Shown piece after piece: positions 15,696-49,241 of a DNA stretch of 64,000 bases. Origin of the DNA: Candidatus Altimarinota bacterium (lineage in GTDB: Bacteria > Patescibacteriota > Gracilibacteria > UBA1369); contig OY782391.1 of assembly GCA_963677745.1 (NCBI GenBank), forward strand, positions 32,001-96,000. Reading direction: 5' to 3'. Under the pieces are notes generated by a model. That model saw only the letters and a list, made by a program, of their open reading frames with translations, had not been told where the DNA came from and ran no database searches. The position numbers and the translations under genes were made by a program. The stretch's first letter is position 1. Each line of letters begins with the position of its first letter.

Positions 15696-17234
<1,539 letters not shown>

Positions 17235-25981: not shown

Positions 25982-26266
25982 ATGGCAAAACACAAATTCG
26001 AAAAGGGCAATCCAGGTGGACCGGGGAGACCGAAAGGCTCCCTGTCCCTGGTGTCGATGTTAAAAGAAAGGCTTGAAAAAATCCCGGAAGGAAAAAAGAA
26101 AACCTACGCCGAACTTTTTATCGACAAGGTGCTTAAGAAATCCATAGACGACGAAGATGTCCAGGCAATGAGGGACGTTTTGAATCGCGTTGATGGTTTA
26201 CCCAAACAACCTTTGGACGTAGGCGGCGAGGTTAAGTTTATTGTCGAGCTGCATGATCGAGATTAA
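25982..26266 (+). CDS. terS: Terminase small subunit (DUF5681-like)
   Basis: KFEKGNPGGPGRPKGS N-terminal motif and RVDGLPKQ; precedes TerL. Confidence 0.75.
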   Translation: MAKHKFEKGNPGGPGRPKGSLSLVSMLKERLEKIPEGKKKTYAELFIDKVLKKSIDDEDVQAMRDVLNRVDGLPKQPLDVGGEVKFIVELHDRD

Positions 26267-27530
26267 ATTACCTTACAATTTGGATCTGGCTTCCCGACCA
26301 TTTCAGGGCGAGATTTTACGGGATCCGAGGAAAAACAAAGTCCTTATCATTCCGCGACGTCACGGCAAAACAACCCTTGCCATCGCAAAACTGGTCATGG
26401 AGGCAATCATAAACCCGAACAAGATTTATCATTATGTTTTCCCTTTCTACAAACAGGCAAAACAGGCCGTTTGGATCGCCCCGGACATGATTAATAAGCT
26501 GGTCCCGATGGAAGCCGTGTCACAAAAACACCAGGTCGATTTGATTATTTATTTTCATAACGGATCCCAGATTCACGTCAAAGGAGCTGATAACCCGGAT
26601 TCCCTGCGCTCTTTGGATTGTCACGGAGTTATCTTTGACGAGCCGGCCCAGATTAAACCCTCCATTTTCGACGAGATTTATTATCCAATCCTTGCCGCTA
26701 ATGGGGGGTGGAGCTGGTACGTTGGGACACCGAAAGGCAAAAATGCTTTTTATCAGAAATACATCACTTGCCGGAAAGACGAAAAGAATTGGCAAGTTGT
26801 CCACCTCAAAGCTTCAACTGCCGGGCTGTTTACCAAGGAGAATCTGGACAAAATCCGCTCCGAAATGACCCAGAAAGCGTTTGCACAAGAAATGGAATGC
26901 GAGTTTTTGGACGAATGCGGATCCCTGTTTCACCGGGTCCGGGAGAACGTCGGAGATACACTTGCAAGCCCGGAGCCGAACAAACAATATCTGATGGGGG
27001 TTGATCTGGCGAAATACTCAGATTTTACCGACATCACGATCCTTGACCGGCATAGTCACGAGGTTGTTCACCGGGACAGTTTCAACCAAATCGACTGGAA
27101 TTTGCAGAAAGCAAAAATCGAAAGTCTGGCCCGGAGATACAATAACGCAAAAATTCGCATCGATTCAACCGGGGTGGGGGATCCGATCACCGAAGATTTA
27201 ACCCGGGCTGGTTTGATCGTCGAGCCGTACAAATTCAACGCCACCAGCAAAAAGCAATTGCTGGAAAATCTGGTCATCATTTTGGAGGAATCAAAGGTCA
27301 AGATACCCAATGACCCCAATTTAATTGACCAATTAGAGGCCTACGAGGCATCAGTTAATGAAAGGACAGGGTCGGTCAGTTATAACGCGCCTGAGGGGCT
27401 CCACGACGACGCTGTTATCTCCCTGGCGTTAGCCTGTTGGAATCTTGGCCTTAAAATGACGATCGGAGCCGAGGGCAAGAAGTTTAATTTTTCTGTCAGT
27501 TACGACAAATTCGGCAGACCATCAATTTAA
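26253..27530 (+). CDS. terL: Terminase large subunit
   Basis: Walker A RRHGKT, Walker B VIFDE, GTPKG, nuclease domain GVDLA...HDDAVISLALA. Confidence 0.95.
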   Translation: MIEIKLPYNLDLASRPFQGEILRDPRKNKVLIIPRRHGKTTLAIAKLVMEAIINPNKIYHYVFPFYKQAKQAVWIAPDMINKLVPMEAVSQKHQVDLIIYFHNGSQIHVKGADNPDSLRSLDCHGVIFDEPAQIKPSIFDEIYYPILAANGGWSWYVGTPKGKNAFYQKYITCRKDEKNWQVVHLKASTAGLFTKENLDKIRSEMTQKAFAQEMECEFLDECGSLFHRVRENVGDTLASPEPNKQYLMGVDLAKYSDFTDITILDRHSHEVVHRDSFNQIDWNLQKAKIESLARRYNNAKIRIDSTGVGDPITEDLTRAGLIVEPYKFNATSKKQLLENLVIILEESKVKIPNDPNLIDQLEAYEASVNERTGSVSYNAPEGLHDDAVISLALACWNLGLKMTIGAEGKKFNFSVSYDKFGRPSI

Positions 27531-27985: not shown

Positions 27986-28030
27986 TTGACATTCGACTTT
28001 CTACGAGTATCTTGCGGAATTGGCGCAGGG
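27986..28030 (+). promoter_or_regulatory. Conserved phage promoter, copy 1 (portal)
   Basis: TTGACA-N16-TATCTT-N8-GGCGCAGGG. Confidence 0.7.
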
Positions 28031-28046: not shown

Positions 28047-29936
28047 ATGCCCAACCCATCAAAAGATTTACAGAATCGGATTGTCTCCGAATTACTGGAA
28101 ACCTACAAAAACTATCAGGACTTGAATAAGACCCGAAATTCAAGGCTTTTGGAAATTTACAAGGCTTTTTCTACGTACAAAGAGGAAAGAAAGGCTGATT
28201 ATATGACCGATATTAAGGTCAACAAGGCCCACGAGGTCGTCGAAAGAGTGCTGCCCCGGATCATCGCCAAAAACCCCAGGTGGATTGTCACCCCAAAAAC
28301 AAATGACTTCTACCCCGAGCAAGCGTTACCGGCTTATAGTCCAGCGGATCCGGCCAGTATAGAGGCTTACAACAAAGCTCAGGCAGATAAACGCCAGAAA
28401 ACGACAGATTACAGCCGGGCAATTCAGGATTATTTGTCGTATATCTTCGACGAATACCATTTTGAGGACGCCATCAGGGGATTCGCCAAGCCGGGGATTA
28501 TTTATGGGAAGGCCCGGGCGAAAGTGGGTTACAAATACGAAACAATCAGAAATTTTGTTGAAATTGAGACTGAGGACGGCGAAACAAAGCGCGAAATTAA
28601 GGAGGACGTAACGGGAGAATATCCGTTTATTGACGTCAAGAGCTGGACCGAAACCCTGTCCGACCCAAGATTTAAAAACGTCCAGGATTCGCCGGCCGAA
28701 TTCGAAATTATCAACGGCGTGAGGCTGTCCGAACTGCGCAGAAAGAAAAAGGAATATTTCAACCTGGATAAATTAAAAGACGTCTGCGATCTGAAAGTAA
28801 TTAACGACGATCTGGATAAATACAAACAGCAAGTTATGACCACGGCCGGCATTTCAACAGTCGGCATTTCCAATCCAATTGATAAAAACGGCCTTTCGGT
28901 CCTCAAGGCTTACACGTTATTTGACGAAAAGGACGACGGCAACGACAGACTATTTGAGGCGACCATAATCCCGGATCTGCAAATTTTGATCGGGTGGAAA
29001 GAAATTACAAAAAAGCCGTTTGTCGATTTCAGGGTTTTCGAGGACATTGAGACAAACTTTGATATTGGCTTTGTTGAGCCGATAATTGGTTTGATGGACG
29101 AAATGTCTTTCCAGAAAAACGCTGCAATTAATTTCGTCAACCAGGCGTTAAACCGAACTTTTGTCTGGTCGCCAAACTCAAACATAGATCCCCGGGATCT
29201 GATTTCCAAACCTTACGGGGTTATCCCGACAACCGGCGACGTACAGACCGCCCTTATGAACTGTCAGGAATTACCGATGCGGCAGTTACCAAGCGATTAT
29301 TTCCAGCTCCAAAATGATATTGAACGTCAAATCCAGACCCAGACATTTACCGTTGATACTTCAAATCCGAAGTCACAACAGGCTTTGACCAATACCGCTA
29401 CCGGGGCCAGAATTGAATTTTTTGAATCCAACTCAGTATTGGATCAGGTGCGGAAAAACTTTGAATCCGCCCTGTCTCAGCTCGCTTATTTGCTGCTGCA
29501 AGAAGCTTTCGAAAACATGGGCGATAACATTGTGCTCAAAAAGCTTGGAGCCGAGGAATATTGGGAAATGAACAGGGAAGTTTTGCGAAATGCTGTCACC
29601 CGATACACGATCCAGGTTGAGGTTGGATCCTCAACTTACGATGACATCGCAAACCGCCGGGCCGATGCTATGGCCTTTTGGAATGTTTTATCACAAGCCA
29701 AGGACGCCGGGGAGCCGGTCAAGCTCCGATCCGCTGTTGAGGACATTGCCGCAACCTTTGAAAAGAAAGATTTGGCCAAGTATTACGACAATTCGGTCGA
29801 TATGGCCAAAATTGCAGATACTATGCCGGGAAACCCTGCGAAATTTAATAAGGCATCGATGCCTGAATTACCTCCAACCCCAGCCGAAATGACCCAAAAG
29901 GTCGCCGGTGGTGAGTTGTTAAGCGTTAATCAATGA
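28047..29936 (+). CDS. Portal protein (P22/podovirus-like)
   Basis: 629 aa after terL; TATGARI motif, G.VEPIIGL.DE...KN and I.VEVGSST. Confidence 0.85.
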   Translation: MPNPSKDLQNRIVSELLETYKNYQDLNKTRNSRLLEIYKAFSTYKEERKADYMTDIKVNKAHEVVERVLPRIIAKNPRWIVTPKTNDFYPEQALPAYSPADPASIEAYNKAQADKRQKTTDYSRAIQDYLSYIFDEYHFEDAIRGFAKPGIIYGKARAKVGYKYETIRNFVEIETEDGETKREIKEDVTGEYPFIDVKSWTETLSDPRFKNVQDSPAEFEIINGVRLSELRRKKKEYFNLDKLKDVCDLKVINDDLDKYKQQVMTTAGISTVGISNPIDKNGLSVLKAYTLFDEKDDGNDRLFEATIIPDLQILIGWKEITKKPFVDFRVFEDIETNFDIGFVEPIIGLMDEMSFQKNAAINFVNQALNRTFVWSPNSNIDPRDLISKPYGVIPTTGDVQTALMNCQELPMRQLPSDYFQLQNDIERQIQTQTFTVDTSNPKSQQALTNTATGARIEFFESNSVLDQVRKNFESALSQLAYLLLQEAFENMGDNIVLKKLGAEEYWEMNREVLRNAVTRYTIQVEVGSSTYDDIANRRADAMAFWNVLSQAKDAGEPVKLRSAVEDIAATFEKKDLAKYYDNSVDMAKIADTMPGNPAKFNKASMPELPPTPAEMTQKVAGGELLSVNQ

Positions 29937-30208
29937 GTATTTTTGAATATTTAAAGGACAGGAACAGTCAAAAGACGTTTGAGGAAACTCAGTCCCAGGC
30001 TGAAAAGATGTTTACCTCCCAAAAGGAGGCGATCAAGGCAATCGCGGATTCTACCGGTTACGCCGAGATCCGGGCTTTCTGGGAAAGGGAAAAGGACGCT
30101 GCAATTCAAAGATTTTCAACCGCTGCCGTTGATGATCCGACCGCCCGGGCGATGTTTACGCTGGCAGACAGATTTTTGAAATTTCTGGACGTGCGCATTA
30201 AAGGCTGA
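29933..30208 (+). CDS. Small head-module protein
   Basis: ATGA-coupled to portal, a typical podovirus position. Confidence 0.65.
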   Translation: MSIFEYLKDRNSQKTFEETQSQAEKMFTSQKEAIKAIADSTGYAEIRAFWEREKDAAIQRFSTAAVDDPTARAMFTLADRFLKFLDVRIKG

Positions 30209-30209
30209 C

Positions 30210-30263
30210 GCTTGGTGGGGACAGGTTTTTATCCTAAACCTGCGCCTATCCTCCCCACCAGGC
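30210..30263 (+). ncRNA. Bulged stem-loop RNA element, candidate antisense regulator
   Basis: 12-bp outer stem, 7-bp inner stem, loop TTATCCT and 9-nt bulge CGCCTATCC; complementary motifs occur in several gene leaders. Confidence 0.55.
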
Positions 30264-30306
30264 ATGAGCCCTTAAAAGCTCCGATACTAAATAACCCACA
30301 AAAAGA

Positions 30307-30969
30307 ATGGCAGACACAAGTCAGTCTCCCGTTGCTGGGGAACAACCCGATAGGGATTCCACCACCAAGGCAACAGGGAAAGACCAAGACGAAAGTCAGG
30401 CGGAAACCAACGCTAAAAACATGGTAGAGATCGACGGCGAAAAAGTCTCCCTGGACCAGGTAAAAGAATGGAAAAAGGGACACATGATGGAAGCCGACTA
30501 TCGCAGAAAGACCCAAGAACTAGCCGAAGCGAAAAGGGAAATTGCCCGAGCCAAACAGGCCGGGGAAACCTCCCCAAGAGCCAAGGAAATGGATCCAGAG
30601 GTCAAGAAAGCAATAGAGATTCTCAAGGAGGCAGGCATGGCCACGAAAGATGATCTGCTGGCAATGAAAATCCAGGAGGAGGACCAGAAAGCATTTAGAA
30701 AGCTTTTAAAGTCAAATCCTGAATTAATCCCCCATAAAAAAGCCCTACAACAAATCGGGCTTACCGATAACCGGGCATGGGAGGACATCGCCAAAGATTA
30801 TGGATTCCTCAAAGATTCCAAACTGGAAAAAGCCAAAGCCGCAAAGCCGATTACTGGGGCAAGAATGGTCCCGGGTTCAGAAACCAAAGCGGTGGACATC
30901 GCAAAGATGACGCCCAAGGAATACGAATCCTGGAAAAAACAAAATTTAGGAGCGCGAAAGTGGCAATAA
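30307..30969 (+). CDS. Capsid scaffolding protein
   Basis: Acidic disordered N-terminus, EIDGEKVSL...ADYRRKTQELAE and C-terminal MTPKEYE.W; precedes the capsid gene. Confidence 0.8.
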   Translation: MADTSQSPVAGEQPDRDSTTKATGKDQDESQAETNAKNMVEIDGEKVSLDQVKEWKKGHMMEADYRRKTQELAEAKREIARAKQAGETSPRAKEMDPEVKKAIEILKEAGMATKDDLLAMKIQEEDQKAFRKLLKSNPELIPHKKALQQIGLTDNRAWEDIAKDYGFLKDSKLEKAKAAKPITGARMVPGSETKAVDIAKMTPKEYESWKKQNLGARKWQ

Positions 30970-31020
30970 ACAGGCGAAAACTTAGGATAAAGATTTACTA
31001 AATAATTTTTATCTTACAAT

Positions 31021-32229
31021 ATGGCTAATACGCTATCTGATGGCTTCAAGACAGTCTGGGCCAAGGAATATGAAACAATATTCTACAAGCTGAACGTCGC
31101 AAAACAAGTTTGTGATATGAGCTTCAAACCAGATCTCGCAAAAGGAAACACCCTGAAAAGAGTTTACCGCTCCGATCAGTCCGGCAATCTCCAAACTTAC
31201 GTTCGGGGAACTGCAATCACAATCAATGATGTTACCGATACCGCCGAATCCCTCACAATTTCCGCTCAGTTCGCTGATGGAATTTACAGAGACGATTTCG
31301 ACGCTATCCAGGACAACTACGATTTCGCCGCTTCTTATGGTAAGGACATCGCTACCTATTGCTCAAACCAGCTCGATGCTGACGTTTTGGGCGACTGGGA
31401 TCAGGCGACTTCTACTGTTGATGATGGCTCAATCGGTGGTACGTCCGGCAATGGTATCACCCTGACAACTTCCAATGTTCTCAAGGTGGTCGCTGCTGCA
31501 AAAAAGAAACTCAAGAAACAAAATGTCCCTGCCACCGAATTATTCGGTGTAATTTCGCCAGAATTTGAACAGGTACTTATCGAATATGGTGCTGGCCGCG
31601 ACACCAAGATGGGCGACGATGCAAACGAAGGGGGTAAAATCCTGAAATTTTACGATTTCGATTTGTATGTCTCCAATATGCTCGGCACTTCTGCCGTGCT
31701 GCAAATGGCTTCCGATCCCGGAGCCGGTGAAACCGTTGTCATCAATGGCGTTACCTTTACTGCTGCCAATCCTATTGGTGCTGTTGCCGGTAACTTCCTT
31801 GTTGGTACGTCTGCCGACGCTTCGCGTTTGGCCCTCGCAACCTTGATAAATGCTCCTGGAACTACAACCGCCGGTGGTGTTGCCGTTTCCGCTGCAAATC
31901 AAAGAAAGCTCCGCAATTGCAAAGCTACTGACGATGCTGCTTTGAACACCATGACCCTTGATTACAAAGGCTTGGGCGTTCTGACAGTATCGGAAACTTT
32001 GGCTGCTGCTGCTGATATCTGGACCCCTGCATTACAGAAACAGCATTGTCTGTTTGGTCGTAAGGGTGCTATTACGGCCGTTGTCCAGAAAGATCCGACC
32101 CCGGAAGTGAAAGAAGTGTCCGACAAGCTCGGTAAAAACGTGCTGGTTGGCATTCTCTATGGTTGGAAAACTTATGCCGACGGAGCCAAGGAATTGGTCG
32201 ATGTCGCATTGGATTCCTCAGCGTTCTAA
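31021..32229 (+). CDS. Major capsid protein (P22 coat-like) with inserted domain
   Basis: Position after scaffold, MANTL start, GNTLK, G.I..FYDFDLYVSN and C-terminal LYGWKT. Confidence 0.85.
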   Translation: MANTLSDGFKTVWAKEYETIFYKLNVAKQVCDMSFKPDLAKGNTLKRVYRSDQSGNLQTYVRGTAITINDVTDTAESLTISAQFADGIYRDDFDAIQDNYDFAASYGKDIATYCSNQLDADVLGDWDQATSTVDDGSIGGTSGNGITLTTSNVLKVVAAAKKKLKKQNVPATELFGVISPEFEQVLIEYGAGRDTKMGDDANEGGKILKFYDFDLYVSNMLGTSAVLQMASDPGAGETVVINGVTFTAANPIGAVAGNFLVGTSADASRLALATLINAPGTTTAGGVAVSAANQRKLRNCKATDDAALNTMTLDYKGLGVLTVSETLAAAADIWTPALQKQHCLFGRKGAITAVVQKDPTPEVKEVSDKLGKNVLVGILYGWKTYADGAKELVDVALDSSAF

Positions 32230-32240
32230 TTATCAACCGA

Positions 32241-32272
32241 GTGAGGGGGCGTGATAGGACGCCCAGTCTCAC
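32241..32272 (+). promoter_or_regulatory. Intergenic hairpin with GATAGG loop
   Basis: GTGAG..GGGCGT-GATAGG-ACGCCC..CTCAC. Confidence 0.5.
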
Positions 32273-32289
32273 CTAACCAAAATAAATAT

Positions 32290-32739
32290 ATGGCTAAAGT
32301 TATCGGAACAGACGTCAAACTTGTCGGGAAAGCCGTTTTCAAGGCCAACGACAGATTTGTCACGTCCCCAGATGGTAGAGTTATGGGGGGCAAAATGACC
32401 GTCACCACCAAGGCGACGGCAACTGCCATCACCCTGACCGCTGCTGAGGTTTTAGGAGGTTTAATCCTCCAGGATCCAGCCGGCGGAGCCTGCACGACCA
32501 ATCTCCCAACAGCGGCTTTATTGTCTGCTGCCCTGGGGGGGGCGGTTGCTGGCGATTCAGTTGAATTCACCATCAGGAATACCGCTGATGCTGGCGAGAC
32601 CATTACTGTTGCTGCCGGAACAGGTGGCGGCACTTCTGGGACTATGACCATCGCTCAAAGCAACACCAAGCGTTTTGTGATTATATTCACTTCCAAAAGT
32701 GCATATACAGTCTATTCGCTCGGTACGATTGTTCATTAG
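32290..32739 (+). CDS. Capsid decoration-like protein
   Basis: TLTAAEVLGGLI...NLPTAA...FTIRN..ITVAAGTG beta-rich protein after the capsid gene. Confidence 0.6.
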   Translation: MAKVIGTDVKLVGKAVFKANDRFVTSPDGRVMGGKMTVTTKATATAITLTAAEVLGGLILQDPAGGACTTNLPTAALLSAALGGAVAGDSVEFTIRNTADAGETITVAAGTGGGTSGTMTIAQSNTKRFVIIFTSKSAYTVYSLGTIVH

Positions 32740-32802
32740 TTTGCAATGGAGGGGGCTTAAAAAAGCCCTTTCCTTGGAGGCTAATCACTAATCAAAAAAA
32801 AC

Positions 32803-33168
32803 ATGGCAGATGATTACAAAATAATGAAAGTTTGGCACAAAGAACGCCAGGCGGAAATGTGGATCAAGGATTTCGCTTTTAATCCTGAAATTCACAAAAA
32901 ATTAAGCGAACTTTTCCCGAAAGATCACATTTACACCGTCCAAATGGAGGCTCTAAATGCAAAGCTCAAAAAATCACTTGAAAGCGAACAAAAACCAGTA
33001 CATAGTGAGCCCGTACAGCAAGAAACGGCTGAAACTCCCGACTACGAAAAAATGAAAATGCCCGATTTAAGGGCTTTGGCAAAATCATTGGGAATCAAGA
33101 CCCAATTCACGGACAAGAAAACAGACATTTTGGCGAAAATTAAGGATACAAACGCAACTAATCCTTAA
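32803..33168 (+). CDS. Protein with C-terminal Rho-N/HeH-like domain
   Basis: YEKMKMPDLRALAKSLGIK...KKTDILAKI. Confidence 0.6.
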   Translation: MADDYKIMKVWHKERQAEMWIKDFAFNPEIHKKLSELFPKDHIYTVQMEALNAKLKKSLESEQKPVHSEPVQQETAETPDYEKMKMPDLRALAKSLGIKTQFTDKKTDILAKIKDTNATNP

Positions 33169-33180
33169 TCCAAGTCAACA

Positions 33181-33966
33181 ATGTATATTGAAAAGTTCCA
33201 AAACGTAAACGGATCAACAATAGCGGTCACGGGAACGGCGACCAATATCTTTGATTTAATCAATACGGCCCAAGCCACCACCCTTACCAACGCAGGGTTT
33301 TCAAGCGGCGTAAATGCAATCACAATCCAGCCGGCAGGGGGCGATATTCGGGTCACTTTTGATGGCACGACCCCGACAGCGACGGCCGGTTTTCTGATTA
33401 AAGGTAATTCGACTGTTTATCTGCCAAATATTCCATTAAAAGCCCTCAAATTAATTCGAACGGGTGGATCCAATGTGAGCTGTTCAATTTTGGTTGGTAA
33501 ATCTGATATGGGCGAAAGTATGTCGGTCAGTACGCCCCAATCTGGACCCCAAACAGTCATTCGGGCGGCTGCAAATTTACCTCAAACAGCCCAGACCCCT
33601 TATTTTACAGTTACCGGGGGCAGATGCAGAATCAAGATCTATGGTGAGGTGACGACAATTGTCGAAAATACCGGGGCGGTAAATATCGATCTTTGGTCCA
33701 ATCCGGCAAACGGCACGGCAGACGCGGCTTTGTGCGCTGTTGTAAATGCTGCCAACGCTGCTGTTGGAAGCTCAATAAACATCACCGGGACGCCTGCAAA
33801 TGCGGCAATTATCAATCCATCAAGTACAGTTTTGGACCAGGCAGATTGGGTTGTTGTCCCAGCCGGAACAATTGACCTCAAGACCTCAGCATCAAAAACA
33901 GGCGCGACAAAGTGGGTTGTTCAATATGAGCCCATCGACGTTGGAGCGAGCATTGCAGCCGCTTAA
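33181..33966 (+). CDS. Putative virion structural protein (two beta-rich domains)
   Basis: T/A/G-rich; IRVTFDGTTPTATAGFLI motif; located in the head module. Confidence 0.55.
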   Translation: MYIEKFQNVNGSTIAVTGTATNIFDLINTAQATTLTNAGFSSGVNAITIQPAGGDIRVTFDGTTPTATAGFLIKGNSTVYLPNIPLKALKLIRTGGSNVSCSILVGKSDMGESMSVSTPQSGPQTVIRAAANLPQTAQTPYFTVTGGRCRIKIYGEVTTIVENTGAVNIDLWSNPANGTADAALCAVVNAANAAVGSSINITGTPANAAIINPSSTVLDQADWVVVPAGTIDLKTSASKTGATKWVVQYEPIDVGASIAAA

Positions 33967-34213: not shown

Positions 34214-34428
34214 GCCATCAGCGACTAAATGAATATCTCTACGATTTGGAGCGCGTCGAGGACGTCAGAAACAAACTTCCACCAGGCGACAGACGCGGCG
34301 AAGTGGATAAAGTCACAAGGCGGATCCGGGAAATGATCTGCGAGGCTGACGGGGCAATAAGTCAGCACCGAAACGTCGAAAATATGCTGGCGCGCATCAG
34401 AAACTTAATAAATATCGTCTTAAAATGA
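34210..34428 (+). CDS. Phage hypothetical protein
   Basis: ATGA overlaps on both sides. Confidence 0.6.
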   Translation: MSHQRLNEYLYDLERVEDVRNKLPPGDRRGEVDKVTRRIREMICEADGAISQHRNVENMLARIRNLINIVLK

Positions 34429-35087
34429 GCACATTATCAAGTCTGGTTTCAGACCTCAGGAATTACATAAAATCGGACCCCAACGATAAAATTTGGGGAA
34501 GTGCAATAAAAGAATCGGCGATAAATTCCGCTTATTTCCAGATCCAGAAAGACGGAGGTTTCAGATGGCCCCAGAATGAAGCGTCAACAACTCAAGTCAC
34601 AGTCGGAGGAACGGCGGAATATGCTTTGCCAACCGACTTTATCAGGCTAGAAATGGTCCAGTTTTCCGATACTTTGGGGCAACTCACCCCGACGACAAAA
34701 CAGGCTGCCATGAGAAATGGCACGACCAGCCAGGGCAGACCATCAAATTACTATCTTTGGAATCAGAAACTTGGCTTTTATTCTACCCCGGACACGGCCT
34801 ACCCGGCAAACATTTTATACCGAAAACGCCTGGCGACATTAACCGGCGTCCAGGATTCACTTTTTCCGTCCGATTTCGATAACGCGATCGTCCGATATGC
34901 GGCTTATATCCTTTGGTCAACGACCAAAAACCAGCCCAAAACAGGGCAGGCGTTGGACGATTACCGCCTGATGTTGGGAATGTTAAAAGACGCTTATTTA
35001 TATCAAGACACCGCCATGATTTCATTCCCTTATCAACGGGGAGTGTCCAGGCGGAATAAATTTGACCCCAAAATACTAGATGCGTAA
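34425..35087 (+). CDS. Head-tail adaptor (tail tubular protein A-like)
   Basis: TL..L...LR, GTAEYALPTDF, GRP..Y, .PD.AY and AIVRYAAY pattern. Confidence 0.75.
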   Translation: MSTLSSLVSDLRNYIKSDPNDKIWGSAIKESAINSAYFQIQKDGGFRWPQNEASTTQVTVGGTAEYALPTDFIRLEMVQFSDTLGQLTPTTKQAAMRNGTTSQGRPSNYYLWNQKLGFYSTPDTAYPANILYRKRLATLTGVQDSLFPSDFDNAIVRYAAYILWSTTKNQPKTGQALDDYRLMLGMLKDAYLYQDTAMISFPYQRGVSRRNKFDPKILDA

Positions 35088-37148: not shown

Positions 37149-37194
37149 TAGACAATGGGGAAAAAGATAGTATCTTCACGAGATAGGCGCAGGG
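37149..37194 (+). promoter_or_regulatory. Conserved phage promoter, copy 2 (tail fibre)
   Basis: TAGACA-N16-TATCTT-N9-GGCGCAGGG. Confidence 0.65.
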
Positions 37195-37210
37195 ATAAAA
37201 ATTCGATAAA

Positions 37211-39664
37211 ATGGCAGTAACAATTCCTTTGGAGGACAATTACGAGGCAATATTGACCCAAGCCCTCGCCGCCGATGCCGCATCGCTGACAGTTTACGTC
37301 TCAAAAACGCCTGTTTGCACAATCCCGGCCGGAAAAGAGGTCGTTATCACAATCGACCCGGGCAGGGGATTTTTATATCAAGAAAATTGTTTGATGGAAT
37401 CTTATGATGCCGTCAATAAAACAATCACACTCAAAACAGCCGGACGTGCGGTCGCCAGGTATGCCGGAGATACAGCTACGGCTTTGCCCCATGCTGTTGG
37501 AGCTAAAATTATCATTTCCGACAATTACTGGGTTTGGGAAAATACCAATGATTATTTGCCCCTTGCCGGCGGAATAATGACCGGGCCAATTCAATTCGGC
37601 GATGCTCTAACCCAGATCCGCCATGATGCCGGCGATATGAAATTCAAATCTGATTCACAGGCCGAGGTTACACTTTCCCAGTTGGCCAGCGGCGCAGGCG
37701 TAAACGACAAAACCAAGGTAAGCGCGGCCGATACTACGGAGGGATATTTATTCAGCAAACTGGCGTTTTCGCTTGGTTTGTCCGGGACGATTTTAAACCC
37801 GGGGGCGAATGAATCTTATCAGATCGGAATCGACACGACCGAGCCAACTTTATTTTCACAAACAGGCGCGGCAAATAAAGTCCCAGTTGGAACACCCAGC
37901 GGTTTGTTGGATCCGTCTTGGATTCCCCAAGAAAACCCTGAAACTGGTGTCTCTGGCAATGTTATTACTGACAAAGAAATACTGAATATTTCCAATTCTA
38001 GCGGTAGAATGGAAGGAACGGACGCGGACGCCATCGCAACGGCAGCCGGATTTATTGGGATCGCCAATAGCGCGGCCGGGGGTGCTGATGTAAGTTTAAA
38101 TTATACGCCTTTCGGCCCAGTTGTTGATATCCCTACGCTGGCAATGGCTGAATATGCAAACGGCGTTTTAACTGCCGCAACTCCAACAAACGTCGTGGAG
38201 GACATTGATACCGATGCCCCTACTGCAATTGCCGAAAGAAGAGCGCAGACATTTACTACTGCAAATAACACCTGGGAGGATAACATCGCCACAGTTTCCT
38301 TACAGCTTACCAAAACTGGTGCGCCATCGGGTAATTCAATTGTCAGGCTTCACGCTACATCGGGCGGACTTCCGATCTCCCGTGTCGCAAATGAAAGCCA
38401 GGCTGCAAGCGACACCGCCGATGCTGTTGCAAACTCAGCCCATTGGAGGGCTCAGACCTTTACCCCTACCGTCGGAGGTTATCTTTCTGATGTCGATATA
38501 TATTTAACGAAAGTTGGTTCGCCTGGTGGAAATTCTACTGTCACTTTAACCGCTGTTGCTGCTGGTGTCCCAACTGGTGCGGCCTTAGCTACCGCAACGG
38601 TCCGGGCAAATTCGGGAATTGCAACGGGGACCATTACCTTTACTTTCCCAACGCCTTATTTACTGGTTGCAGGGACTACCTATGCCATTGTTCATTCACC
38701 CGGAACTGTATCGGCTGGCAACACTTTGTCCTGGGACTATCAGAATTCTGATGCTTATGCTGGTGGAAATTCTGCCTATTCAACCAATTCAGGGGGGGCT
38801 TGGACCGCAAGTGCCTATGATCGGAGGTTTACAGTTTACACCAATGGGGAATTGGGGAGGGCAACAGTTGCCAACGCCTCAATTGCTACTGGAATTAATC
38901 TATTTACGTTCGCGACACCCGTCGCTGTTTCTGCAAATACTGTTTACGCGCTTGTTTATGAAGCTGGCGGAACTTCTGCCGGTAATGTGGTTGCCTGGGA
39001 TTATAAAAACGGCGATGTTTACGCAGGCGGACAATCCGCAAAATCAACCGATTCGGGTCAGAATTGGACTGCCGAAGCTGGTTATGACCGCTGGTTTAGA
39101 ATGCAATATGGTGCGATTTACGGGCTTCCGGCTTTTGTAAGTACGGCAACTGGTGGATTAACACTTTTACCTGCCGCTACTGGGTCGGGAGATTTCAATC
39201 GCAGAATCGGATTTATGGTAAGTAACAACAAACTGCTATTAAGTGCCGGAATTCAGCACATTTACGCTACTTTTAATTTTACCGCCGATGCGCCGGCTAC
39301 TGTTGATACAGAAATTACAATTGGATTTAGGCCAATGATGATTTTTGCAAGTGGACGAAATGGGGCAGGGACGACCGTTACAAATGGCTCAATGGGACAT
39401 TGGATGCAGGGTGGAAGTTCAATGTCTTTGGAAAACAAGGGAACTTTCATCTCTGCCAATGGGGCCAGTCAGTTTTTTGGATATGCTACTGGGAGCCTTT
39501 TATATTTTGACAACGACAGTAACCCAGCGGCAGCAAATTTTATCTATGTCACCATGACCGTCCAGGCAACTTCTGCCAATACCGTTACAATTCGGAGAGT
39601 GGTTACAGAGGACACGGCAGGCTCAATGACGCCCTATATTTATCTACACATAATCGGTTGGTAA
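37211..39664 (+). CDS. Tail fibre/spike with nested duplicated beta-sandwich domain
   Basis: N-terminal HAVGA anchor and YLPLAGG.MTG; two homologous AQTFT...YDR.F domains. Confidence 0.75.
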   Translation: MAVTIPLEDNYEAILTQALAADAASLTVYVSKTPVCTIPAGKEVVITIDPGRGFLYQENCLMESYDAVNKTITLKTAGRAVARYAGDTATALPHAVGAKIIISDNYWVWENTNDYLPLAGGIMTGPIQFGDALTQIRHDAGDMKFKSDSQAEVTLSQLASGAGVNDKTKVSAADTTEGYLFSKLAFSLGLSGTILNPGANESYQIGIDTTEPTLFSQTGAANKVPVGTPSGLLDPSWIPQENPETGVSGNVITDKEILNISNSSGRMEGTDADAIATAAGFIGIANSAAGGADVSLNYTPFGPVVDIPTLAMAEYANGVLTAATPTNVVEDIDTDAPTAIAERRAQTFTTANNTWEDNIATVSLQLTKTGAPSGNSIVRLHATSGGLPISRVANESQAASDTADAVANSAHWRAQTFTPTVGGYLSDVDIYLTKVGSPGGNSTVTLTAVAAGVPTGAALATATVRANSGIATGTITFTFPTPYLLVAGTTYAIVHSPGTVSAGNTLSWDYQNSDAYAGGNSAYSTNSGGAWTASAYDRRFTVYTNGELGRATVANASIATGINLFTFATPVAVSANTVYALVYEAGGTSAGNVVAWDYKNGDVYAGGQSAKSTDSGQNWTAEAGYDRWFRMQYGAIYGLPAFVSTATGGLTLLPAATGSGDFNRRIGFMVSNNKLLLSAGIQHIYATFNFTADAPATVDTEITIGFRPMMIFASGRNGAGTTVTNGSMGHWMQGGSSMSLENKGTFISANGASQFFGYATGSLLYFDNDSNPAAANFIYVTMTVQATSANTVTIRRVVTEDTAGSMTPYIYLHIIGW

Positions 39665-40003: not shown

Positions 40004-42865
40004 ATGGTTGCAGAAACAATCACAACGGGAAACTGGGGCAGAAACAAAAAAAGATTACCGCCGGCGGTTGAATCAATGCCGGATCAACAGGTAAAAAGGG
40101 GAGTTGATTTAGCCGGAACTCAAGTCCAAACGCCAGACGGAGCCTACACAATGAAACCAGCGAGCGCAGGCGGTTTACCCATGGCAAGGGTCGGACAAAC
40201 GATCCCGGAACTGAGACAGCCCAGACTTCCGGCAACAGTCGCCACCTCAGATAATCCGTTAATTCAAAAAGGACAGCCGGTCACTACCGCAACAACCGAC
40301 CCCAGACAAAAGGAGGTCGAAATTATGGTAAAAAGAGCGAAAAACGAAAGCCTCAATGACGAAGATTTGCGCTTTTTGGCCAACAAAGAACTGGAATCGC
40401 GGAATGTAACTACCCCCGTCGCAGCTACCTCACCAACCCCGGTGGTTACACCTGACGACATCAACGCAATGACCCCTGAACAAAGACAGGCTTACGAACA
40501 AAGCGGATTTAATGACATCAGGGACCAGCAAATCGGGGCAATCGACGAATTCGGCCAGGCACAGCAAGATGTGTTTGGAAAAAGGATCGCCGCTGCCGAA
40601 GATCAACTCGCAGAAACAAAGTCACAAACGGAGCTGCAAAATAACGAACTTTTAAAAGCTTTCGAGGCAGAACAACGCCAGGCGGCGGAAGGCTCAAAAC
40701 AAGACATAATAGAGGCCGGAGCCGAAGGAATGAACACTTTACAACGCAGCGCGGCAAGACGTGGAATGAGCCGGTCCAGCGATACTGAGGGGGCCATCGC
40801 GAAAGCAACTGCCAACACTCAAAAACTTGTCGGACAAATTGAACTCGCAACAAATTCGGCAATCAGGACTTATCAGGTTGAACTTTTGGATAAACTGGAC
40901 CAAAAGATGACCAAATTACAGGACAGGGTCACAAATCTTGGTGATGCTGCCGCCGATGCTGAATTGTCGGTTATGAAAGAAAAGCAGAAAACCTATGTCG
41001 ATTTAATGAGCCAGGATCCGACCAATCCCAAAAACATGATCGCCCTTGCCGATAAATTAAAAACTCAGCAATTGGCAGAACTCAAGGAAAACAACGAGGC
41101 CGCAAAAGCCCTTAGAGCTGATGCAAAAGCCAATTTCCAATTTATGATTTCCAGTTTTGGAAGCCAGGCGTTTGCCAATACGTCACCTGAGGAAATGGCA
41201 AATCTTGCCGCAAATCTCGGCGTCCCAGTAAGCACATTATCGAAAATGCCTGCCACCCTGAAAGAACAGGAAAATGACTGGGAAAAACTCAAATATTCCG
41301 CTGATCGTCAATGGGACGCTCAAAAATACGCTCAGGACAGGGAGGATAAATTTGCCATTGAGGATTTGAAAACAAGTAACGATTGGCAGAAATTACTTTG
41401 GCAGGCTGCCCGTGATGACGAAAAATCCAGCAAACAATTGGATAATATTTTGGCATCGGTTGGCATAGATTATGCAGACAAAGCGTCCGGGGCAACACCA
41501 AGCGCGATGACTTACGATGTCCCCGTTCCTCACCCGGTAAGCGGCGACGCTGTTGTTTCTGTGAATACCAACTTAGCCTTGGCGAAGCCCGAAGGTTACA
41601 AATATTCTACCAGCGGTGGTCCTTTGGCCGGTCAATGCGCCTGGTATGCTGAACAACTCACAAATTTGGGAGGCAAAAACTGGACCATCGGTAATACGCT
41701 TTCGGAAAAACAAAATAATCTCGCCGGAAAGGTCAAACAAGGATTGGCGTTTTATCCAGGACAGGACGAAATAAAGGTTGGTCAGACTTTAATTACCAGC
41801 GATTCCCAGACTTATGGCCACGCTGCCGTTGTGAACGGAATTACTGCCGATGGAAAACTGATTTTGACTGAATCAAACTATGCCGGTCCGCTCAAAGTCA
41901 CAAATACCAGAACGGTTGACCCCAACGATCCGAAGATTATCGGAATCCTGAAAACCACCCCGAAACCCCAATATCAGATCGCCAAGGCGGCGGTCAACGC
42001 GATCGGATCCGTCACCGACAAACTGGGACCGCTTGGGAAACTTGTTTCAGGGATTGGAAAAGAAAACCCCAATATCGGCGAATCAATTGCACAGACTTTG
42101 GCCGGTTTCTTGCCCTCAGGGGAGACCCCGGAACAACCGACGGAAACACCGACCGAACAACCGGGACAAAATGCTTTGAACGAAACGCAAATCAGGGGAA
42201 TTGACAGCCTTTCAGCGGACGAAAAAGCATTACTCAGACAGCAAGCCCCGGAGGTTTGGAATATGTATTTGCAGAGCGGAGGGGCAAAAGACCAGGCGAG
42301 CGCGTCTGATGTCAGAATGACCAGAAAAGAGGTTTATTCCATGCCGGTAGTCAAGAACTTTGAGGCGTTAAACGACACTTTCGAAAAGATGGATTCCTCC
42401 TACAAGGCATATAAAAAAGGCTCCATTGCCAAGGGCGGCGTCGATCAGGCGTTGGTGATGATGTTTAATAAGATGCTGGATCCGACCTCAGCCGTTAGGG
42501 AGGGCGAATATGCAAGAACAGCGCAGGGACAGTCTGCCCTTGATCGAGCCCAGCAGTATGTCGCCCAGTTATCTCAGGGGGGCGCAGGTATTACAGACAA
42601 AACCAGATCCGACATGGTTGACCTTGCGAAAGAATTACAGGGCGCGGCGCAGCAACAGTTTAACAGCCAAATGAAATTTTACGTCGATCTGGCCCCGGAA
42701 CTTGGCACGACACCTCAAAATCTCCTTGGTGCTTATTATCAGTATTACCAGCCCGGACAGACGGGAGGTCAGAGCGTAAAAGTCCAAGGCCCAGACGGCA
42801 ATTTGTATGAAATGACCCCGGAGGACGCTCAACTTGCAGTCCAACAGGGCGGAAAAATAATCTAA
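40004..42865 (+). CDS. Virion ejection-like protein with CHAP peptidoglycan hydrolase domain
   Basis: Long helical/coiled-coil protein; GQCAWYA...YGHAAVV...ESNY CHAP motifs near 41630-41950. Confidence 0.75.
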   Translation: MVAETITTGNWGRNKKRLPPAVESMPDQQVKRGVDLAGTQVQTPDGAYTMKPASAGGLPMARVGQTIPELRQPRLPATVATSDNPLIQKGQPVTTATTDPRQKEVEIMVKRAKNESLNDEDLRFLANKELESRNVTTPVAATSPTPVVTPDDINAMTPEQRQAYEQSGFNDIRDQQIGAIDEFGQAQQDVFGKRIAAAEDQLAETKSQTELQNNELLKAFEAEQRQAAEGSKQDIIEAGAEGMNTLQRSAARRGMSRSSDTEGAIAKATANTQKLVGQIELATNSAIRTYQVELLDKLDQKMTKLQDRVTNLGDAAADAELSVMKEKQKTYVDLMSQDPTNPKNMIALADKLKTQQLAELKENNEAAKALRADAKANFQFMISSFGSQAFANTSPEEMANLAANLGVPVSTLSKMPATLKEQENDWEKLKYSADRQWDAQKYAQDREDKFAIEDLKTSNDWQKLLWQAARDDEKSSKQLDNILASVGIDYADKASGATPSAMTYDVPVPHPVSGDAVVSVNTNLALAKPEGYKYSTSGGPLAGQCAWYAEQLTNLGGKNWTIGNTLSEKQNNLAGKVKQGLAFYPGQDEIKVGQTLITSDSQTYGHAAVVNGITADGKLILTESNYAGPLKVTNTRTVDPNDPKIIGILKTTPKPQYQIAKAAVNAIGSVTDKLGPLGKLVSGIGKENPNIGESIAQTLAGFLPSGETPEQPTETPTEQPGQNALNETQIRGIDSLSADEKALLRQQAPEVWNMYLQSGGAKDQASASDVRMTRKEVYSMPVVKNFEALNDTFEKMDSSYKAYKKGSIAKGGVDQALVMMFNKMLDPTSAVREGEYARTAQGQSALDRAQQYVAQLSQGGAGITDKTRSDMVDLAKELQGAAQQQFNSQMKFYVDLAPELGTTPQNLLGAYYQYYQPGQTGGQSVKVQGPDGNLYEMTPEDAQLAVQQGGKII

Positions 42866-42870
42866 AAACC

Positions 42871-46253: not shown

Positions 46254-46298
46254 TTGCATTTTAAGAATTCCAGCGTATCTTTCGGAATTGGCGCAGGG
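46254..46298 (+). promoter_or_regulatory. Conserved phage promoter, copy 3 (before lysis module)
   Basis: TTGCAT-N16-TATCTT-N8-GGCGCAGGG. Confidence 0.65.
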
Positions 46299-46312: not shown

Positions 46313-47167
46313 ATGGCTATCACTTACCTGAGAACACCCGTTTATCGCGGAACAAATGTCGCTGGACAAACTGCAATGGTCAACGGCCAGCCTTATGTTA
46401 TGAGGGGTGCATCTTCTGGCGTGGCAACCCGGACGCTTCCAAACTATGTGCAAGGACGCCCAGTCACCGAAGATGACATCTCCAACGCCCGAAATGCTCA
46501 GGCCCAGGCTGTCGCAACAGTCGGCAATTACACCCCGGACGGGATCCAGATTAATAAAGTCCGCCAAGGGTGGCTTTCAAATCAAAACCCAGAATTGAGG
46601 GGAGGTATTGCCGAGGTTTCTGTTAATGGCAAGCCAATTCGCGTACCAAACGCGCTTTTACAACAAATGATGTTTACCGACGCCTGGAATCAGGGCCGGA
46701 GCAATGAAGTCGGCGATTTTTTCAATGGCAGAGCAAACCCGGATCCGAAAACTTATGGTTACACAAATTATGACGCGACCCAACAGCGTTTTGACAAGAT
46801 TTTAGCCGCAAATCCGCAATGGACAAATGACGCGCCGCTGAATCCTTACAAGGCGGCCGAGGAAAAAGCCCAGGCAGCCGCCGGCCGGTATCAAAAAATT
46901 ATGGACCAGATGGGACAACCCATGAAAGAAAGCCGGGCAGCAGGGGGACAATTTATGGGTGGCGACACTATGGGTGGCTTAAAAAGCGAGGCCGACAAGG
47001 CGTTGGCCGAGGCCCAATCATATTCCCCAGAACTTAACGCGCGCCGGGGCCGGTATTTTGGGGAATTGCAGGGTACGCGAATGCTCGAAGCACAAAGAAA
47101 AGCTTTTGAGGGTGGCGTTAAACCAACCTATTCAAATTTACCGATTCAGGAAAGAATTATTAAATAA
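46313..47167 (+). CDS. Phage late hypothetical protein (possible virion protein)
   Basis: 284 aa, Q/G/N-rich, behind a conserved promoter. Confidence 0.6.
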   Translation: MAITYLRTPVYRGTNVAGQTAMVNGQPYVMRGASSGVATRTLPNYVQGRPVTEDDISNARNAQAQAVATVGNYTPDGIQINKVRQGWLSNQNPELRGGIAEVSVNGKPIRVPNALLQQMMFTDAWNQGRSNEVGDFFNGRANPDPKTYGYTNYDATQQRFDKILAANPQWTNDAPLNPYKAAEEKAQAAAGRYQKIMDQMGQPMKESRAAGGQFMGGDTMGGLKSEADKALAEAQSYSPELNARRGRYFGELQGTRMLEAQRKAFEGGVKPTYSNLPIQERIIK

Positions 47168-47994: not shown

Positions 47995-48379
47995 AAAAAA
48001 CCGTTACTCGCAAACAATCCATCACGTCGTCCCAAGTTCCAGACGGGACGAGGGGTTTGACACTTCAAATAAACGCAATTTAAGGGATCTCCGCAAAACC
48101 TACCATGAAAACTGGCATCGTCTTTTTGCAAACAAAACGCCGGCTGAGATTATTGATTCGGTTGTCCAGATGCAGCACAATGTCATAAATCAAAAGGTCA
48201 GACGGGTAATTGAGGGGCTTTGCGATTTACCAAAATCTGATTTTTACATTCCAGACGTGTTGACCGAATATGCCGACGAAGATTTCGACCCGATGGACGT
48301 TGAGCTGGTCCGGGGAGAATTAAAAAAGCGGATCCAAGAATTACTTGACTGGATCGACGGTTTTAACGGTGATGTTTAG
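47987..48379 (+). CDS. HNH-like endonuclease
   Basis: TIHHVVPSSR...NL......H..WH.LF. Confidence 0.65.
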   Translation: MAKKNRYSQTIHHVVPSSRRDEGFDTSNKRNLRDLRKTYHENWHRLFANKTPAEIIDSVVQMQHNVINQKVRRVIEGLCDLPKSDFYIPDVLTEYADEDFDPMDVELVRGELKKRIQELLDWIDGFNGDV

Positions 48380-49241
48380 AGTGGATTTCCTGTAAATATT
48401 TGTCGGTAACGTGGGTATAAACCTGGGTTGTCGTTATTGAGGCGTGGCCCAAAAGTTGCTGAATTGCAGGCAGGGGAGCACCATTCCTTAAAAGCTCAGT
48501 TGCAAATGTATGGCGCAAACTATGGGGAGTAACTTTTTTCTTTATTCCGGCTTTCAGGGCGTAGGTTTTTACAATTATTTCGATCATCGCAACGCCCAGG
48601 CGTTTACCATTCCCGGAAACAAACAGCGCGTTTGATTTATCAGTCCTAAGGGACAAATACCGATCAAGACTTTTTCGGGCGACGTCCGAGATAAAAACAA
48701 GCCGATATTTTCGGCCTTTTCCTAAAACCCGGACATTGTTACTCAGCACATCGTCCCGATTCAAACTGGACAACTCCCGGACCCGGCAGCCGGTAGAATA
48801 CAAAACCCGGATTATCGCCGTGTTACGAATCGACCTGAACAAATCACAATCTTTTATCTCAAGTAATTTTTTCAGCTCCGGCATTTCCAAATAACACGGC
48901 TCCGGCCTGCTATATTTACAGGTTTCTATTTTATAGTATTTCAGCGTCGGGAAGTCCCGAATAAAACAAAATTTCAGAAATTGTCGGAGGACGATCAGGT
49001 GATACTGGACAGAGTTAAAACCGAGCCCCTTTTCCCTTAGTTTTAGGCGGAAACTATCAATATCCGAGCAATCTATCAGCTTTATATCTTTTCCCCGTAA
49101 AACCTCTAAAAACGCATATAAACAAGACTTGTAGTTTCTGAGCGTAAAAGGGGAGTAATTTTTGATAATTTCTAAATACTCTAGATATTTGTCAATCAAG
49201 TCAAGCACATGGTAAATCCGCCCGTCCACTATTTCACACAT
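48363..49241 (-). CDS. XerC/XerD-like tyrosine recombinase (probable integrase)
   Basis: YLEYLEI.KNYS..TLRNY SAM-like N-terminus; TGCRVREL, GKG.K.R, TPHSLRHTFAT and LLGH....TTQVYTHV. Confidence 0.92.
   Translation of the reverse strand: MCEIVDGRIYHVLDLIDKYLEYLEIIKNYSPFTLRNYKSCLYAFLEVLRGKDIKLIDCSDIDSFRLKLREKGLGFNSVQYHLIVLRQFLKFCFIRDFPTLKYYKIETCKYSRPEPCYLEMPELKKLLEIKDCDLFRSIRNTAIIRVLYSTGCRVRELSSLNRDDVLSNNVRVLGKGRKYRLVFISDVARKSLDRYLSLRTDKSNALFVSGNGKRLGVAMIEIIVKTYALKAGIKKKVTPHSLRHTFATELLRNGAPLPAIQQLLGHASITTTQVYTHVTDKYLQEIHSKHHR

Follow-up and report, generated by a model that had tools for sequence, protein, structure and literature searches.

Several kinds of RNA regulator are known to act at the start of a message by pairing with its leader. 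In synthetic "toehold switches", a single-stranded toehold lies 5' of a hairpin that gates the start codon; the hairpins addressed by the anti-antisense activators hide the Shine–Dalgarno (SD) site, and these activators mostly need Hfq; in the kissing control of CopA/CopT and RNAI/RNAII, the seeds are located in hairpin loops and a chaperone is not needed. The c4 antisense RNA is processed by RNase P. The original paper on c4 is reportedly that of Citron and Schuster from 1990. For phage P1, PMC8198154 describes the operon c4-icd-ant1/2 and the C4 binding site, and PMC12197685 describes the activation of rpoS by the phage-derived StxS via the 5' untranslated region. Here we analyse a stretch of 64,000 nucleotides (nt) from Candidatus Altimarinota bacterium (contig OY782391.1, positions 32,001 to 96,000; below, "the window", in whose coordinates all positions are given), which carries a prophage with a hairpin, element E, in its late operon. 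We suggest that RNA–RNA pairing between E and the leader of the major capsid gene is probably functional. This is indicated by sequence conservation, by shuffle and positional controls, and by a second phage clade in which the partners covary, while the case for a second leader, before ATG 33181, is weaker.

Element E and the leaders that it matches

The features central to this analysis are the following:
30210-30263, + strand, hairpin element E, with a 12-bp outer stem, a 7-bp inner stem, the loop UUAUCCU at 30229-30235 and the 3' bulge CGCCUAUCC at 30243-30251
30973-30989, + strand, motif of site A, GGCGAAAACTTAGGATA, in the scaffold–capsid intergenic leader, -48 to -32 of ATG 31021
30983-31016, + strand, leader hairpin A, 13 bp with an 8-nt loop, its 3' arm lying over -17 to -5 of the capsid start
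33132-33148, + strand, motif of site B, GGCGAAAATTAAGGATA, inside the 3' end of open reading frame (ORF) 32803-33168, -49 to -33 of ATG 33181
33125-33184, + strand, leader structure B, with an upper hairpin (33139-33147/33161-33169) and a lower helix (33125-33134/33174-33184)

Element E begins 2 nt past the stop codon (30206-30208) of a small gene, 29933-30208, and folds into a nested hairpin with a predicted free energy (dG) of -31.2 kcal/mol and a z-score of -4.56. It is followed by CAUGAGCCC with no U tract, and it lies 2.2 kb downstream of the promoter at 27986-28013, no + strand terminator-like site being called between them or at E itself. Rfam gave no family up to an E-value of 5 in 29900-33400 and none at the gathering score in the window, and ARAGORN found no tRNA-like fold in the region of E and the leaders. 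The nearest relative (L001/L028, that is G061) has a capsid protein 92% identical to that of the prophage, and 70% of the columns are identical in the 6-kb DNA alignment, in which E falls within a 77-nt exact run, the longest of all. The more distant phage L045 (capsid 75%) has a nested hairpin of this shape at the corresponding position; both of its stems have changed in a covarying manner, while the loop UAUCCC and the bulge GCGCCUAU are retained. Since E combines the longest exact run with the same fold built from changed stems, we consider it a conserved structured element. Scans for the exact E pattern gave matches confined to the viral contig of the nearest relative; 12 matches in genome contigs lacked the hairpin and were taken as chance.

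Both leaders form A/U-rich hairpins. In A, TAGGATAAA (30983-30991) pairs with TTTATCTTA (31008-31016) with one G-U pair, and the predicted stem extends to 13 bp (30983-30995 with 31004-31016) with three G-U pairs (dG -10.1 kcal/mol, z -5.08). In B, ATTAAGGAT (33139-33147) and ATCCTTAAT (33161-33169) form a perfect 9-bp stem with a 13-nt loop; together with the lower helix, in which the start codon 33181-33183 is predicted to pair with 33126-33128, this gives -13.5 kcal/mol (z -4.68). For each leader, none of 200 shuffles folded equally well. ORF 32803-33168 includes the two arms of B together with the upstream strand of the lower helix, and the stop codon of this ORF, 33166-33168, is contained in the 3' arm, which covers -20 to -12. 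By prediction, the initiation region is therefore occluded from -17 to -5 in A, and from -20 to -12 plus the AUG in B. Correspondingly, the mean unpaired probability over -20 to -1 is 0.27 for the 33181 leader and 0.35 for the 31021 leader, the lowest and the third lowest among 22 phage leaders.

These leaders were noticed in a preliminary description made from the letters of the window, and every hairpin and motif sequence that it gave was found at its place. Its statement that the hairpins close just before the start codon holds for A, which ends 4 nt before ATG 31021, but is looser for B, which ends 11 nt before ATG 33181; similarly, the GGCG which it took as unpaired is so in A, but in B two of its Gs are paired in the predicted lower helix. 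No terminator-like site was called on the + strand at E, A or B. Neither leader looks like a sigma-70 promoter, as no promoter-like match was found on the + strand between 29413 and 32978, and matches such as that at 32978-33006 occur at the chance level (30 found versus 26.5 expected). The AGGA of the motif is not a ribosome-binding site, because it lies 33-36 nt upstream of the start codons and the genome almost never uses SD sites.

In a search of both strands of the window, the sequence GGCGAAAAnTnAGGATA has just two exact matches, at 30973-30989 and 33132-33148. The likeness of the leaders (15/17 at offsets of -48 and -49) ranks second among the 231 pairs formed by the 22 phage leaders, the sole pair with a better score being two identical promoters. 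Thus, the earlier observation that a motif is shared even though the second copy lies within the coding end of the upstream gene was confirmed. The antisense of E reads GGCGCAGGTTTAGGATA, and the pattern GGCG-N8-GGATA occurs three times on both strands of the 64 kb: at A, at B and in the antisense of E (0.33 expected; 0 of 100 shuffles reached three). Site A has a 10-nt Watson–Crick complement in E (30982-30991 with 30228-30237; 11 nt in G061) plus GGCG:CGCC, while site B has 6+4 nt with one mismatch plus GGCG:CGCC, so that in both leaders it is the 5' arm of the hairpin that is complementary to E, and the proposed match of the motifs to the loop and bulge of E is borne out. Across 21 leaders, 2000 dinucleotide shuffles gave P 0.0025 for the longest complement of the 31-nt E core (12 nt) and P 0.0005 for the sum of its top three (30). 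RNAduplex runs with the whole 54-nt element were dropped, being swamped by the G+C-rich stems. A scan of viral contigs for the A/B motif pattern returned 37 stretches, with two copies only in the contig of the nearest relative.

Two further resemblances to E were noted in the window. The sequence TAAAAACC at 42863-42870, directly 5' of ATG 42871, is an 8-nt complement to E 30224-30231, which is within chance expectation. G+C-rich hairpins follow the capsid gene (32241-32272) and the next gene (32748-32777); the GAUAGGA loop of the former matches the E bulge over 6 nt, which was set aside as chance, the loop there being UUCG in G061.

Along with E, both motifs are kept in the nearest relative: the region of motif B lies in a 28-nt exact run (33122-33149, rank 8) and that of motif A in a 25-nt run (30967-30991, rank 9). 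The arms of both hairpins are kept while their loops differ, so the predicted leader hairpins are conserved as well as stable against shuffles. In G061, hairpin A persists with 12 bp, its top and loop being different, and the two-storey fold of B is predicted there despite a different spacer, again with the start codon paired. With the capsid protein as query, genome contigs yielded no relative, and 60 related genomes a single 33% match.

The layout is repeated in different letters in a second phage clade, in which the capsid is 55-57% identical and TGA is read as sense. In these phages, a long hairpin is likewise located where the small gene meets the scaffold gene, with a base that overlaps or closely follows the stop codon, and its loop complements the phage's own capsid leader at -30 to -40. 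The complement is 12 nt long in L068, 9 nt in L055 (= L076; GCUAUGGGA with UCCCAUAGC) and 9 nt in L077 (GCUAUGGAA with UUCCAUAGC); between L055 and L077, a G-to-A change on one side is compensated by a C-to-U change on the other. Shuffles gave P <0.0003, 0.006 and 0.007 for these complements, and none of the other 70-nt windows (0 among 80, 49 and 48) equalled their lengths. The loci of L055 and L068 each contain a single copy of the 7-mer and a single copy of its complement. The net pairing energies are favourable, from -6.6 to -7.7 kcal/mol. A small leader hairpin has its 5' arm overlapping the target in L055 and L068; in L077, the target is located within a hairpin. The same word occurs in the portal leader of L068, within the loop of a predicted 10-bp hairpin; the portal leader of L055 keeps the word, with a minimum-free-energy fold that lacks this hairpin. 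A scan for the flanks of the second-clade hairpin returned at least 117 stretches, and among the matches listed only one, on a contig already in the comparison, encodes the capsid. It is because these loops complement their own leaders in other letters and with a compensatory change that we regard the pairing of E with the capsid leader as probably functional; neither a DNA-binding site nor chance easily accounts for such an architecture.

Two side observations concern the capsid relatives. Most of them (among L002-L004, L046-L055, L068-L072 and L076-L077) give long ORFs only with TGA read as sense (code 25), and are therefore taken to be phages of recoded hosts, while the prophage of the window reads the standard code. 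In L071, positions 2630-2641, at the junction of the small-gene stop and the scaffold start, are perfectly complementary over 12 A/U-rich nt to -14 to -3 of that phage's capsid leader, just before the capsid start; this may be another version of the long-range contact, or a chance match of low complexity.

A tentative role for E, and its rivals

The host genome provides the background against which these leaders may be interpreted. Its 16S rRNA carries a normal anti-SD tail, while SD motifs are rare in the upstream regions of its long ORFs (GGAGG in 12/1134, GAGG in 20/1134, i.e., 1-2%) and G is depleted, so open, A-rich leaders are what counts for initiation in this host. Tentatively, at a probability of about 0.35, we propose that A and B are translational gates addressed by E on two virion genes of the late operon. 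If the host initiates without SD pairing and relies on open, A-rich leaders, a gate could consist of an A/U-rich hairpin whose 3' arm closes the region just 5' of the start codon, to which B would add a helix over the AUG. Transcribed upstream on the same strand, right after the stop codon of the small gene, E would offer its loop (UUAUCCU) and bulge (CGCC) to the 5' arm of the gate and to the GGCG upstream of it. Pairing with E and closure of the leader hairpin would be mutually exclusive, so that pairing would free the 3' arm and permit more initiation, as in anti-antisense activation; E might act at long range on its own transcript, in cis, or be processed and then act in trans. Position suggests the direction in which E would act: the paired targets in A, B and the second clade lie at about -40 to -26, upstream of the usual ribosome footprint, which favours activation over occlusion.

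The preliminary description went further and supposed that binding of E opens the leader hairpins, with GGCG as the toehold. As modelled, this supposition is partly supported. We summed the duplex energy and both opening costs in an RNAup-like manner, an equilibrium estimate that includes neither kissing geometry nor ribosomes. For A, pairing with the loop alone costs +4.9 kcal/mol, and two-part pairing (GGCG:CGCC plus the arm) comes to -0.1 kcal/mol; for B, two-part pairing costs +8.8 kcal/mol. Pairing with E therefore does not out-compete either hairpin in the equilibrium model, and pseudoknot-free cofolding of the leaders with the element leaves E and both hairpins intact. The supposed toehold offers 4 nt, followed by a 5-nt non-complementary gap before the stem. 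To open A and B, E would need help, which could come from ribosomes terminating at the abutting stop codon or from folding kinetics, such as folding during transcription.

Besides the energies and the cofolding, several points weigh against our proposal. The longest contiguous complement of B to E is 6 nt, as in eight other leaders, and the motif patterns were defined after the data had been inspected. Conservation of B is partly coding and exceeds the coding expectation only weakly, with no clear excess: at conserved residues, identical codons make up 13/16 in the last 20 codons versus 27/45 elsewhere. E of L045 has only a 6-nt complement in its own capsid leader (P 0.6). Six other capsid lineages (the L003/L048 group, L052, L069, L071, L072 and L075) have no such partner for a hairpin loop, and the signal is limited to five mutually related phages in two clades. 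As for a pairing helper, neither Hfq nor ProQ was found in the 97.9%-complete host genome.

The alternative that survives best, which we consider rather unlikely as a full account, is that the local structures work independently of E, B serving translational coupling and A shortening the distance from scaffold stop to capsid start or protecting the mRNA, with the likeness to E being unused. For B, this would be sufficient: its 3' arm holds the stop codon 33166-33168, its start codon is paired in the window and in G061, and translation to the end of 32803-33168 would unfold it and expose the AUG, which is a further difficulty for gating by E. The energies that disfavour invasion of A or B, and the background-level complement of B, agree with such independence. 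What it leaves unexplained is a 15/17 motif at equal offsets in a coding and a non-coding leader, the presence of this two-part motif with the same spacing in the antisense of E, and the covarying complementarity of loops and leaders in the second clade.

A third site, C, which is absent from the preliminary description, extends, together with three promoters, the list of places complementary to E:
37182-37201, + strand, site C, GATAGGCGCAGGGATAAAAA, 10 nt before ATG 37211, complementary to E 30239-30250 (12 nt) and 30226-30234 (9 nt)
37149-37176, + strand, promoter-like TAGACA-N16-TATCTT before gene 37211-39664
27986-28029, + strand, portal-operon promoter TTGACA-N16-TATCTT followed by GGCGCAGG at 28022-28029, an 8-nt complement to E 30239-30246
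46254-46297, + strand, third promoter, TTGCAT-N16-TATCTT-N8-GGCGCAGG, before gene 46313-47167

Site C is stronger than A and B and is not guarded by a hairpin; its pairing with E is estimated at -13.2 kcal/mol, compared with -5.8 kcal/mol for the 46290 site and -0.5 kcal/mol for the portal site. According to these estimates, E should at equilibrium bind C and not invade A or B unaided. G061 keeps the site (L078 1464-1484) as a 14-nt complement inside a diverged spacer. Because the promoter-like sequence lies directly upstream, C would constitute the 5' end of the 37211-39664 transcript, and in our proposal E would pair with this unguarded end too, with a weaker contact to GGCGCAGG where two other phage transcripts would start.

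Site C also bears on a second alternative, in our opinion an unlikely one: E would pair with the leaders, with repression or RNA cleavage as the outcome, by RNase III processing of the late RNA or by blocking of the leader at C. This strongest predicted site covers -29 to -10 of a leader of roughly 27 nt, RNase III is present in the host genome while RNase E/G was not found in it at 97.9% completeness, and c4 of P1, the described system nearest to this one, acts as a repressor according to PMC8198154. Against such an outcome stand the positions of A, B and the second-clade sites beyond the ribosome footprint, the length of the duplexes (9-12 bp, short for RNase III by general knowledge), and the lack of an obvious logic in repressing a capsid gene from its own operon.

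The sequence GGCGCAGG is found 8-9 nt past the -10 box of three sigma-70-like promoters (27986-28029, 37149-37193 and 46254-46297), the last of which was missed by a simple promoter scan as its first hexamer matches at 3/6 positions. Between 27.9 and 46.4 kb, the + strand has GTATCTT at these three promoters and nowhere else. G061 has four promoters of the type -35/N16/TATCTT plus GGCGCAGG, while the pattern was found in 0/35 genomes of the family and, among viral contigs, only in that of the relative. Owing to this placement, the possible partners of E extend to the regions where several phage transcripts probably begin. Either an operator or a 5' leader shared by the transcripts could account for this conserved start region, and the former possibility leads to a third alternative, which we regard as very unlikely: GGCG-N8-GGATA and GGCGCAGG would be binding sites of a phage or host protein, on DNA or RNA, and the copy in E a third, inverted DNA site. 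Three copies with identical spacing, as well as the position of GGCGCAGG 8-9 nt after the -10 boxes and its retention in G061, are compatible with this. Nevertheless, the GGCG-GATAAA spacing differs at site C, which suits bulged RNA pairing and not a rigid protein site; the words of the second clade sit in loops of long perfect hairpins (the E loop and the portal-leader loop of L068), as for RNA kissing; and the stems of E covary as an RNA or DNA hairpin would. Finally, chance combined with coding constraint is a highly improbable explanation: A/U-rich leaders fold readily, random 6-10-nt complements do arise (about one 10-mer complement to the 54-nt element in 25 kb, by our own estimate), B lies within coding sequence and L045 has no significant complement, but the shuffle and positional controls, the conservation and the repetition in the second clade speak against it.

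The prophage and its host

The window belongs to a single-contig genome of 1.34 Mb, and the prophage spans about 23.9-49.2 kb of it. Its genes include large tail genes and the following:
26241-27530, large terminase gene
28047-29936, gene in the portal position (629 aa), without a family match and called portal by position alone
29933-30208, + strand, small conserved gene (91 aa, no family), its stop codon 30206-30208 abutting E
30307-30969, + strand, scaffolding protein gene (phrog_3927 head scaffolding protein, E 9.9e-08), between E and site A
31021-32229, + strand, major capsid protein gene (phrog_267 and phrog_283 major head protein)
32290-32739, head protein gene
32803-33168, gene of a Rho_N-like protein
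33181-33966, gene of unknown function, called a virion gene
34425-35087, SU10-type adaptor gene
48363-49241, minus strand, integrase gene

The gene order around the small gene 29933-30208 is the same in all relatives. Its 91-aa protein family has only four members in a search of 5.8 billion proteins, with P0002 and P0003 as further homologues; in one source P0003 is named nicotinate-nucleotide pyrophosphorylase, which looks like a mis-annotation. The integrase gene (48363-49241) forms one end of the prophage, and tRNA-Leu 15696-15782 is not adjacent to the prophage (23900-49241), being separated from it by the host genes obg, tyrS and recG. Four public DNA runs carry the stretch with zero differences, so there are no natural variants to use; no RNA run holding it is listed among public runs.

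Comparison with described systems

To our knowledge, gene regulation in phages of ultra-small bacteria is almost unexplored, as is the translation of internal cistrons without SD pairing. We found no title or abstract in the literature describing an element of this kind, and the word "capsid" does not occur in the accessible part of the review on phage small RNAs (PMC12197685). With considerable doubt, we suggest that the E-type hairpins may form an undescribed class of co-transcribed "hub" riboregulators in the head operons of phages of ultra-small, SD-independent bacteria similar to the candidate phyla radiation (CPR). As part of this suggestion, the hairpin at the stop of the small gene would pair via its loop and bulge with capsid, portal and tail leaders and set the ratios of virion proteins; possibly, the downstream start is held near ribosomes that terminate at the base of E, or the gates are opened only during translation of the operon. 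If true, E would be a natural chaperone-free riboregulator of structural genes, and the contact between a conserved, covarying hairpin and the capsid leader would represent a testable post-transcriptional circuit for virion stoichiometry.

Among the systems with which the locus may be compared, synthetic toehold switches share the logic of A and B, but here the toehold is 4 nt long, 5 mismatched nt precede the stem, the loop contains no ribosome-binding site, hairpin A does not include the start codon, and the trigger E is itself locked in a hairpin of -31 kcal/mol. As in CopA/CopT and RNAI/RNAII, the E loop of the second clade faces a target in or beside the loop of a leader hairpin; those partners are, however, encoded on opposite strands and are fully complementary, while here 9-12 nt are complementary and both partners derive from one strand. 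In the coat–replicase coupling of MS2, a hidden downstream start is melted by upstream translation, as predicted for B, but MS2 is an RNA phage with a single cistron pair, without the shared motif and the hub hairpin found here.

The anti-antisense activators (DsrA, RprA and ArcZ on rpoS; RNAIII on hla) likewise pair with the 5' arm of a hairpin that closes the initiation region. E differs from them in that its host hardly uses SD sites, Hfq was not found there, the element is co-transcribed with its targets, and opening is energetically unfavoured. The c4 RNA of P1/P7 (immI operon) is, like E, a structured RNA that shares its operon and strand with targets further downstream, and it pairs with a downstream leader. 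It represses an anti-repressor gene, while the targets of E are virion structural genes; the two have no sequence relation, and neither Rfam homology to C4 nor tRNA-like processing was found for E. Membership in either family fails on the tested features; in its layout, E is closest to the c4 antisense RNA of P1, and in its logic, to the anti-antisense small RNA activators.

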